Positions 5,371 through 44,390 of a DNA stretch of 64,000 bases are shown in pieces. The first letter of the stretch is position 1; each line of letters opens with the position of its first letter. The notes beneath the pieces were generated by a model. It saw nothing but the letters and a program-made list of their open reading frames with translations, searched no databases and had not been told where the DNA came from. A program made the translations under genes and the position numbers. This DNA is from Escherichia coli (GTDB lineage: Bacteria > Pseudomonadota > Gammaproteobacteria > Enterobacterales > Enterobacteriaceae): the NCBI RefSeq assembly GCF_044324875.1, contig NZ_CP172185.1. One strand, given 5' to 3'.

Positions 5371-5466
5371 GTTAGACGTTCTTTAAAAATAAGGAAATGT
5401 TTGAATTTAGTTGGTAGATTGTTGATGTGGAATAAATTTGTTTAAAAACAGATATGTATGCTTAGT
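5371..5466 (+). promoter_or_regulatory. CRISPR leader (AT-rich, between cas2 stop and first repeat)
   Basis: About 96 bp AT-rich non-coding stretch directly upstream of repeat 1; leader-array promoter expected here by analogy with E. coli I-E arrays. Confidence 0.6.
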
Positions 5467-5983
5467 GTGTTCCCCGCGCCAGCGGGGATAAACCGCTTTT
5501 GTTTCTGATTTCTACGCCTGTGGGTAAGTGTTCCCCGCGCCAGCGGGGATAAACCGGAGCAACTACTCGCAGCACAACAGGCAGGTAGGTGTTCCCCGCG
5601 CCAGCGGGGATAAACCGTTTTCTCTAATTACAGTGATTTTTCAAAATCCGTGTTCCCCGCGCCAGCGGGGATAAACCGCGATTCAAAAATAAAATGACGA
5701 CGGAGGAGGCGTGTTCCCCGCGCCAGCGGGGATAAACCGCCGTCGAAGTGACCATGCTCTTTCATTGTGATGTGTTCCCCGCGCCAGCGGGGATAAACCG
5801 AACACAGCGTAAAACCGTCGCAGCCATGCCGAGAGTTCCCCGCGCCAGTGGGGATAAACCGATTGGTCGGTTATGCATCCTGCTAACCAGATTGTGTTCC
5901 CCGCACCAGCGGGGATAAACCGTAATATTAGACTAATGTTTTTTTGTTGAGTTCGTGTTCCCCCGCCACTGCGGTAGAACTCC
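5467..5983 (+). CRISPR. Type I-E CRISPR array: 9 repeats of 29 bp (last degenerate), 8 spacers of 32 bp, 61 bp period
   Basis: Repeat GTGTTCCCCGCGCCAGCGGGGATAAACCG begins at 5467, 5528, 5589, 5650, 5711, 5772, 5833, 5894; repeat 7 reads GAGTTCCCCGCGCCAGTGGGGATAAACCG and repeat 8 GTGTTCCCCGCACCAGCGGGGATAAACCG; degenerate terminal repeat at 5955..5983. Confidence 0.97.
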
Positions 5984-38374: not shown

Positions 38375-38781
38375 GTGAAAAGGTGGTGTTCAGTCAACTG
38401 AGCCGTAAATTTATTGATGAGAACGATGCCACGCCCGCCGAGGCGCAGCAGGTGGTCTATTACAGCCTGGCGATTGGTCACCACCTTGGGGTTATCGATT
38501 GCCTGGAAGCGGCGCTCACCTGCCCGTGGGATGAATATCTGGCATGGATTGCCACTCTGGAGGCGGGCAGCGAAGCCCGCCGCAAAATGGAAGGCGTGCC
38601 GAAATATGGTGAGATCGTCATCGACATTAACCATGTGCCGATGCTGGCCAACGCATTCGATAAAGCCCGGGCAACGCAAACTTCGCAGCAGAAAGAATGG
38701 AGTACAATGCTGTTAAGTATGCTGCATGATATTCATCAGGAAAACGCCATCTATTTGATGGTGAGGAGATTGCGTGACTGA
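38371..38781 (+). CDS. hycH: Formate hydrogenlyase maturation protein HycH
   Basis: 136 aa in expected position. Confidence 0.9.
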
Positions 38782-39244
38782 CGTTTTACTCTGTGTTGGC
38801 AATAGCATGATGGGCGATGATGGCGCAGGCCCGCTGCTGGCGGAAAAGTGCGCCGCCGCGCCGAAAGGTAACTGGGTGGTGATTGACGGCGGTAGCGCAC
38901 CGGAAAACGACATTGTCGCTATCCGCGAACTGCGCCCGACACGACTGCTGATTGTCGACGCCACGGATATGGGGCTAAACCCCGGCGAGATCCGCATCAT
39001 CGACCCGGATGACATCGCCGAGATGTTTATGATGACTACCCATAACATGCCGCTGAACTACCTTATCGACCAGTTAAAAGAAGATATTGGCGAAGTGATT
39101 TTCCTCGGCATCCAGCCGGATATCGTCGGCTTTTACTACCCGATGACCCAGCCGATTAAAGACGCCGTAGAAACCGTTTATCAACGGCTGGAAGGCTGGG
39201 AAGGGAATGGCGGCTTCGCACAGTTAGCGGTGGAAGAAGAGTAG
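38774..39244 (+). CDS. hycI: Hydrogenase 3 maturation endopeptidase HycI
   Basis: 156 aa, [25 protein letters not shown]... Confidence 0.95.
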   Translation: MTDVLLCVGNSMMGDDGAGPLLAEKCAAAPKGNWVVIDGGSAPENDIVAIRELRPTRLLIVDATDMGLNPGEIRIIDPDDIAEMFMMTTHNMPLNYLIDQLKEDIGEVIFLGIQPDIVGFYYPMTQPIKDAVETVYQRLEGWEGNGGFAQLAVEEE

Positions 39245-39304
39245 TTTTTCAGTAAGGAATCAGGACAGGGATGTTCTTGATGAGGGAATCAGAACTGATA
39301 GCAA

Positions 39305-39397
39305 ACGCCAGATTGCCCGATGCGCTGCGCTTATCGGGCCTACCTGGTTCGTGCGACATGTAGGCCGGATAAGGCGTTCACGCCGCATCCGGCACTG
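39305..39397. repeat. REP/BIME element (two palindromic units)
   Basis: gcccgatgcgctgcgcttatcgggcctac and gtaggccggataaggcgttcacgccgcatccggc, classic REP palindromes between convergent hycI and ascB. Confidence 0.85.
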
Positions 39398-39401
39398 TTA
39401 C

Positions 39402-42292
<2,891 letters not shown>

Positions 42293-44238: not shown

Positions 44239-44390
44239 AAATCTTACAGAACTGTTCTGGTATCAAAGGAATTCCCGGAAATATTCGTAGAATACGAAGC
44301 GGGCAGTATCGCCGACCTGTGACTGCCGGATGCGACGCGCTCGTGTCCGGCTGGGCGGGTTACGCAATTCATGATGGCGGGAATAACTCA

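Follow-up and report, generated by a model that had tools for sequence, protein, structure and literature searches.

The 157-bp spacer between the convergent genes hycI and ascB of Escherichia coli, flanked by their two stop codons, raises the question of what it contains and what it might do to the two transcripts that meet there. We addressed this question in a 64,000-nt stretch of E. coli DNA (contig NZ_CP172185.1; hereafter the window, in whose coordinates positions are given), for which a preliminary description had placed two inverted REP units at the junction and had suggested a REP consensus search and a comparison with K-12 as checks. The spacer and its flanks are laid out as follows:

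38774-39244, plus strand: hycI, converging with ascB
39245-39313, plus strand: segment of the hycI 3′ UTR ahead of the REPs, 69 nt, missing in Citrobacter, Pseudocitrobacter and Enterobacter
39314-39343, plus strand: Z2-type REP unit TGCCCGATGCGCTGCGCTTATCGGGCCTAC, 27/30 to the Z2 consensus, sense for the hycI transcript
39344-39359, no strand assigned: linker CTGGTTCGTGCGACAT, 16 nt, short (of S-type length), joining the CTAC...GTAG feet
39360-39394, minus strand: Y-type REP unit, reverse complement of TGCCGGATGCGGCGTGAACGCCTTATCCGGCCTAC, 35/35 to the consensus, sense for the ascB transcript
39402-40838, minus strand: ascB, converging with hycI

The spacer contains a REP pair corresponding to REP197

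Both REP units lie within 39314-39394, their CTAC/GTAG feet face to face across the 16-nt linker; the Z2 unit begins 69 nt past the hycI TAG, and the Y unit (TGCC) 7 nt past the ascB TAA. A gapped REP pattern (GATGCG N4-16 CTTATCNGGCCTAC) had two exact matches in the 64 kb, at 39319-39343 (plus strand) and 39360-39389 (minus strand), against 0 in 100 shuffles, and the REP tail motif alone occurred four times where 0.45 matches were expected. For blastn-short, we used Y, Z1 and Z2 consensus units, which were validated by exact copies that take turns in the BIME-2 at yahG-yahI of a different strain. These searches placed the Y unit at 39360-39394 (minus strand, 35/35, E = 1.5e-15) and the Z2 unit at 39314-39343 (plus strand, 27/30, E = 1.7e-5), where two of the three differences from the consensus form a compensatory T-A to C-G stem change. 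Only three matches in the 64-kb window were significant with the Y, Z1 and Z2 units, the third being the srlD-gutM unit described below. A fixed-spacing form of the 1984 REP consensus gave no match at up to three mismatches, its spacing being unsuited to Y and Z2 units. The gapped-pattern and unit-wise matches are far above chance, and the two inverted units of the preliminary description are borne out.

As a 251-bp query, the junction matched at least 186,469 places in 5,425 of 5,426 complete E. coli genomes (median at least 38 per genome), from which it follows that its REPs belong to a high-copy repeat family. The conserved GTAG/CTAC tetranucleotide foot is present in both units, each of which combines a consensus match, an imperfect palindrome, the foot, an extragenic site and high copy number.

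The K-12 RefSeq annotation holds no repeat features over a 49-kb stretch, and an Rfam scan of the window returned tRNAs only; Rfam apparently lacks any REP family. The three Rfam tRNA matches form a cluster at 63110-63554 that corresponds to the K-12 serV-argV/Y/Z/Q region. The supplement of a 2026 preprint lists 'REP197, Convergent, 2842502-2842424, ascB, hycI', and projection of this element from the ascB stop codon places it at window positions 39314-39392, so that the suggested K-12 comparison yields an element at equivalent coordinates that the listing classes as convergent. Judged by sequence and position, the hycI-ascB pair is the catalogued K-12 element REP197, already known and an ordinary member of a well-described family; its value for annotation is small. 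REP197 of K-12 MG1655 and the window pair share the locus, both units and the linker length, with spacers of 158 and 157 bp, respectively. They differ in the Z2 foot, which is degenerate in K-12 (GGCCTTC, with several substitutions upstream) and canonical in the window (GGCCTAC).

REPs of types y, z1 and z2 combine into BIME-1 (z1 and y with a long L linker) or BIME-2 (z2 and y with a short S linker, usually in tandem and with strain-variable copy number), and the linker sequences vary (Ton-Hoang et al., PMC3333891). At hycI-ascB we found the composition of BIME-2, a Z2 unit and an inverted Y unit, joined by a linker of 16 nt versus 17 nt at the yahG-yahI BIME-2. The similarity between the two linkers is marginal, shuffled sequences doing equally well in 224 of 5,000 cases for one yahG-yahI copy and in 1,466 of 5,000 for the other. 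Neither a tandem array nor a repeated s, l or r flank was found at the junction. With BIME-2 composition in a lone unit, the pair is best named a single-unit BIME of Z2/Y composition. BIME-1 was ruled out, there being no Z1 match and a linker of only 16 nt.

A second REP lies inside the srl/gut operon

The preliminary description had also reported a REP-like hairpin following gutM, at about 53150-53200. The features concerned are:

52774-53133, minus strand: gutM, downstream neighbor of the REP
53165-53194, minus strand: degenerate single Z2-type REP, 28/30 by eye, foot CATAC (GGCATAC versus GGCCTAC), sense for the srl/gut mRNA
53239-54018, minus strand: srlD, upstream neighbor of the REP

The hairpin is indeed a Z2-type REP (blastn-short match of the Z2 unit at 53169-53194, minus strand, 25/26, E = 6.8e-8), a degenerate member given its CATAC foot in place of CTAC, but its site is upstream of gutM: srlD and gutM are both on the minus strand, and a REP between them is therefore inside the operon. 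The proposal that these elements mark operon boundaries consequently holds for the hycI-ascB pair at its convergent junction and fails for the intercistronic srlD-gutM REP. K-12 also carries the latter, and a 161-bp query centered on it was found contiguous, once per genome, in 5,405 of 5,426 genomes, which makes it essentially fixed.

Upstream of this REP, a perfect 10-bp GC-rich hairpin (GCGGAGATCC-GTTAA-GGATCTCCGC, 53208-53232, minus strand) stands 6 nt past the srlD stop codon; it is not a REP, has no U tract and is kept in K-12 with a loop change and a G-U pair. Between hydN and hypF, a degenerate single REP-like hairpin (TGCCGGATGCGACGCGCTCGTGTCCGGC, 44324-44350, plus strand) without the CTTATC...CTAC tail corresponds to K-12 REP196 (2837466-2837492), which the preprint supplement also lists beside a Rho-binding peak; the preliminary description had passed over this hairpin. 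Repeats of another kind form a CRISPR array at 5466-5922 (probably longer), with at least eight copies of the 29-nt repeat GTGTTCCCCGCGCCAGCGGGGATAAACCG, presumably the E. coli type I-E CRISPR repeat, at a 61-bp period; Tandem Repeats Finder missed this array, which was detected by a separate repeat search.

The hycI-ascB pair is polymorphic among E. coli genomes

An intact Z2-linker-Y arrangement adjoining ascB was present in 3,385 of 5,426 E. coli genomes (62%), and the whole window-like junction including the hycI end in 2,743. The term 'core-genome punctuation' used in the preliminary description is thus not strictly apt for the hycI-ascB pair, in contrast to the near-fixed srlD-gutM REP. 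The variant alleles were:

Y unit lost, junction GTAGG/TTAC (O157:H7 type): 309 genomes
Y unit lost, junction GTAG/TTAC (SCU-102 type): 398 genomes
linker lost (GGGCCT-T-GTAGGCC): HM50, SCU-306 and CEA601S
IS621 inside the Z2 foot: O104:H4 C227-11 and 2012EL-2448
three REPs, 49-bp insert: strain E01 only

Y-less alleles amount to at least 707 E. coli genomes, and in various other strains the linker is absent, inverted or duplicated. The three-REP allele occurred in one genome (E01) of the 5,426, the remaining search matches being palindrome artefacts. Apart from its insert (locus L002, 1645-1693), which comprises the inverted linker and a chimeric REP with 5′ GTAG and 3′ CTAC, the E01 junction shows no change; a template switch in two steps across the quasi-palindrome could have produced the insert, but so could an error of assembly.

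The allele with IS621 can be read against two target matches in the REP feet:

39333-39343, plus strand: IS621 target ATCGGGCCTAC, 10/11 to the wild-type target ATCAGGCCTAC, core CT, unoccupied in the window
39360-39370, minus strand: second 10/11 match to the IS621 target

The published wild-type IS621 bridge-RNA target is the 11-bp ATCAGGCCTAC with a CT core; the K-12 foot ATCGGGCCTTC has two mismatches to it and the window foot ATCGGGCCTAC one. In O104:H4 C227-11 (locus L008, about 206-1483) and 2012EL-2448, IS621 (∼1.28 kb) sits at the CT core of the Z2 foot with CT on both sides, the element lying at ATCGGGCCT/AC; on the right of IS621, the BIME linker is inverted relative to the window. 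From a spread sample, we estimate that a few percent of genomes carry this allele. Natural insertion by the IS621 bridge recombinase is thus documented at the hycI-ascB REP.

About half of the genomes have accessory genes between hycI and the Z2 unit, and the extra 69 nt that follow hycI in E. coli mark the spot where such genes enter and leave. In other E. coli strains, they include a HigB-family toxin (Pfam E = 4e-22) with an HTH_3 partner, as well as proteins of 197-251 aa without a Pfam match (L006 768-1495; L005 777-1532; L007 834-1446). The hycI 3′ UTR of the window holds an imperfect 23-nt direct repeat (74% identity) at 39244-39266 (GTTTTTCAGTAAGGAATCAGGAC) and 39273-39295 (GTTCTTGATGAGGGAATCAGAAC), and the GGGATGT that sits between its two copies is found at both edges of a ∼750-bp insertion in CEA601S. 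The repeat may be a scar of accessory-gene gain or loss, or else due to chance.

A REP after ascB recurs in other genera

Scanning with a DNA pattern for the C-terminus of ascB yielded 120 loci, 45 of them with convergent hycI and ascB, and nearly every short hycI-ascB spacer contained GC-rich palindromic units. A REP following ascB in the E. coli orientation, its stem starting 6-9 nt past the stop codon, was found in at least 14 species of about six named genera (Escherichia, Pseudocitrobacter, Citrobacter, Enterobacter, Klebsiella and Pseudenterobacter, plus two contigs without a reliable genus label). The 14 species are a selection from 37 tabulated, the rest including three with an inverted unit, about eight with other palindromes and about 12 with long spacers. 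We compared stems by explicit arm extraction, because inverted REPs pair mutually and render MFE hairpin counts noisy: the outer stem is retained, with double changes at pair 4 (G-C in 8, C-G in 3) and pair 6 (A-T in 5, G-C in 8), and Pseudocitrobacter has exactly the Y unit of E. coli. A second REP lies 4-5 nt past the hycI stop codon in Citrobacter sp. Awk4 and R56, Pseudocitrobacter and several Enterobacter, with spacers of 79-93 bp. The occurrence of two-REP spacers in other genera makes it probable that two REPs were the ancestral state and that the E. coli alleles without Y arose by deletion.

That a REP keeps its place next to ascB across genera is the sole mildly unexpected result of this analysis. 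It permits the tentative proposal that this REP is ancient and position-constrained, the compact pair having been kept as a shared module for 3′ ends and translation damping since before the genera split; we regard this as somewhat doubtful, and homogenization of REPs within genomes could mimic the conservation. If true, it would run counter to the common opinion that REPs do not keep their positions from one genus to another.

Further sequences at the junction were noted in these genera. Seven Citrobacter loci (L014, L029, L066, L122, L071, L061 and L075) have hycI-ascB spacers of 445-501 bp. That of Citrobacter werkmanii (L014 3228-3479, plus strand), the one Citrobacter spacer scanned, contains a SymE-family type I toxin gene (Pfam E = 1.3e-19) with hairpins on either side, a second kind of toxin module at this junction. 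In Enterobacter and relatives (L018, L024, L127, L076, L073 and L093), another GC-rich palindromic family occurs, CCCTCTCCCC N3-4 GGGGAGAGGG, often followed by TTAGGGTGAGGGG, sometimes in several tandem copies and sometimes beside a REP. Genes for ascB with 95-98% amino-acid identity to E. coli were also present on contigs labeled Chryseobacterium sp. 18061 (L081, also with hycI and a REP), Alkalicoccobacillus (L056) and a Collinsella MAG (L067), which are probably contaminants of those assemblies.

Does the pair act at all?

The pair might be selfish or neutral DNA, REPs spread by RAYT (TnpA-REP) that pile up harmlessly between convergent genes and have no role for hycI or ascB. The strong allelic variation at the site speaks for this, as do published findings that ∼60% of the REPs of E. 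coli are located between convergent genes and that TnpA-REP cleaves and recombines BIMEs in vitro, with strain-variable copy number (PMC3333891); the junction also gathers HigB/HTH genes, SymE toxin genes and IS621. However, the constant orientation of the ascB-proximal REP, the start of its stem 6-9 nt from the stop codon across the species above and its compensatory stem changes form a pattern that neutral drift would hardly produce, though the REP machinery could imitate it through homogenization. We therefore consider this explanation possible, with odds clearly against it.

Alternatively, the pair could act as DNA, a BIME-2 gyrase site that relieves positive supercoils between the converging transcription units. 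BIME-2s are enriched for in vivo gyrase cleavage with the Y unit as the preferred target (PMC6379681), and a perfect Y unit is located here between convergent operons. Yet the strong named gyrase sites are multi-copy BIME-2s (PMC6379681), whereas hycI-ascB is a single unit, neither hycI nor ascB was found in the accessible part of the supplementary tables of the gyrase-cleavage study, and Y-less alleles are common. Such a role is unlikely.

RNA structure and termination signals

Each REP folds as a separate stem-loop on both strands (whole-spacer z-scores −3.1 and −3.5), the Z2 hairpin occupying 39315-39339 in the plus-strand fold; the stems measure 8+4 and 8+2 bp, each broken by an internal loop. 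Stable GC-rich hairpins on both strands, together with the 78 REPs located inside published bidirectional terminators, would suit a bidirectional intrinsic (Rho-independent) terminator. Between 38900 and 39700, however, no site with a hairpin and a U tract was found on either strand: the stems are followed by CTAC... and ...CACTG, so that the pair is not an intrinsic terminator by this measure. REP197 was also not seen in the accessible part of the bidirectional-terminator overlap table, and we consider this explanation very improbable.

The C-rich signal lies beyond the REPs:

39172-39291, minus strand: C-rich, G-poor tract in ascB-sense RNA just past the REPs, equivalent of the K-12 Rho peak (about 39160-39280 in the skew profile)

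In this tract, the excess of C over G is +15 to +19 per 80 nt, beyond the 99th percentile for the window; C-richness is weaker (+7 to +11) in the hycI-sense RNA that follows the REPs. A table in the 2026 preprint gives a Rho-binding peak at K-12 2842525-2842645 on the ascB-sense strand, 23-25 nt from REP197, which coincides with the tract downstream of the REPs. By its composition, the tract appears rut-like. The preliminary description had called the units probable mRNA stabilizers or terminators; in the intrinsic sense, the latter term fails for want of a hairpin plus U tract, and it may hold solely in a Rho-associated or exonuclease-blocking sense.

That the site encodes a small protein (a 109-aa ORF at 39320-39649, plus strand, or a 42-aa ORF at 39260-39388, minus strand) can be dismissed, for although both ORFs appear in the mechanical ORF list, they cross REP units and run antisense to ascB, no CDS is annotated at the site in K-12 or strain E01, and 'yahH', annotated in one genome on the yahG-yahI BIME, exemplifies an ORF generated by a REP array.

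A possible role in the 3′ ends of both transcripts

The explanation that we favor overall, with a probability of roughly 85%, is a single-unit BIME-2-type Z2/Y pair equal to REP197 with a Rho/exonuclease mechanism at the 3′ ends. Transcripts of the hyc operon and of ascFB would run through the pair, and Rho would stop both further downstream; 3′-5′ exonucleases would then trim the RNA back to the REP hairpins, giving steady-state 3′ ends at which the hairpins would protect the upstream mRNA. With both convergent transcripts trimmed in this way, one element would serve both units, and the pair most likely shapes the 3′ ends of both the hycI and ascB mRNAs. Trimming of Rho-dependent transcripts back to stable stem-loops has been reported, with 24% of the 144 stem-loop termini studied located at annotated REPs (PMC6061677). 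Published work further describes REP325 as a partial Rho-dependent terminator and stabilizer, and REPs between convergent genes as associated with higher expression of both genes. Other published results are less supportive of protection: placing REPs behind a reporter failed to produce the expected stabilization and, according to one published source, terminal REPs had no general effect on half-life.

The Y hairpin could in addition affect translation. REPs <16 nt from a stop codon are reported to hold up ribosomes at termination and to reduce translation of the gene upstream (Liang et al. 2015, as summarized in PMC12306157). At 7 nt past the ascB stop codon, the Y hairpin falls into this class and is a candidate damper of AscB synthesis. 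The asc genes are cryptic in K-12, which weakens the argument for tuned AscB expression, and the Y-less, linker-less and IS621-bearing alleles indicate that strains can do without the intact pair.

At the DNA level, REP-directed recombination would act on the pair, and this would account for the allelic variation of the pair. IS621 insertion is the one such event observed directly, whereas RAYT action and template switching at the pair are what we infer. The natural allelic series and the positionally equivalent REPs in other genera could test the roles as stabilizer, Rho attenuator and translation damper without engineering.

Comparison with known REP systems

As at hycI-ascB, Z2 and Y units of opposite orientation take turns in the BIME-2 arrays of yahG-yahI and REP325 (yjdM-yjdN), their feet separated by a short linker; these are tandem arrays of 2-6 BIME units, whereas hycI-ascB consists of one. 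The REP 3′-end stabilizers and partial Rho-dependent attenuators of the malE-malF paradigm and REP325 share with hycI-ascB a 3′ UTR or intercistronic hairpin, the lack of a U tract and Rho-related signals nearby. Their function has been shown by experiment, while that of hycI-ascB is proposed by inference. With respect to stop-proximal REPs (Liang, Rudd and Deutscher 2015; nrdAB), the ascB Y unit at 7 nt fits the limit of <16 nt, with a putative effect on ascB; the Z2 unit, 69 nt from the hycI stop codon, is outside this class. Finally, the window foot matches the type of the natural REP targets of IS621, an IS110-family element guided by a bridge RNA, and carries no IS621 itself.
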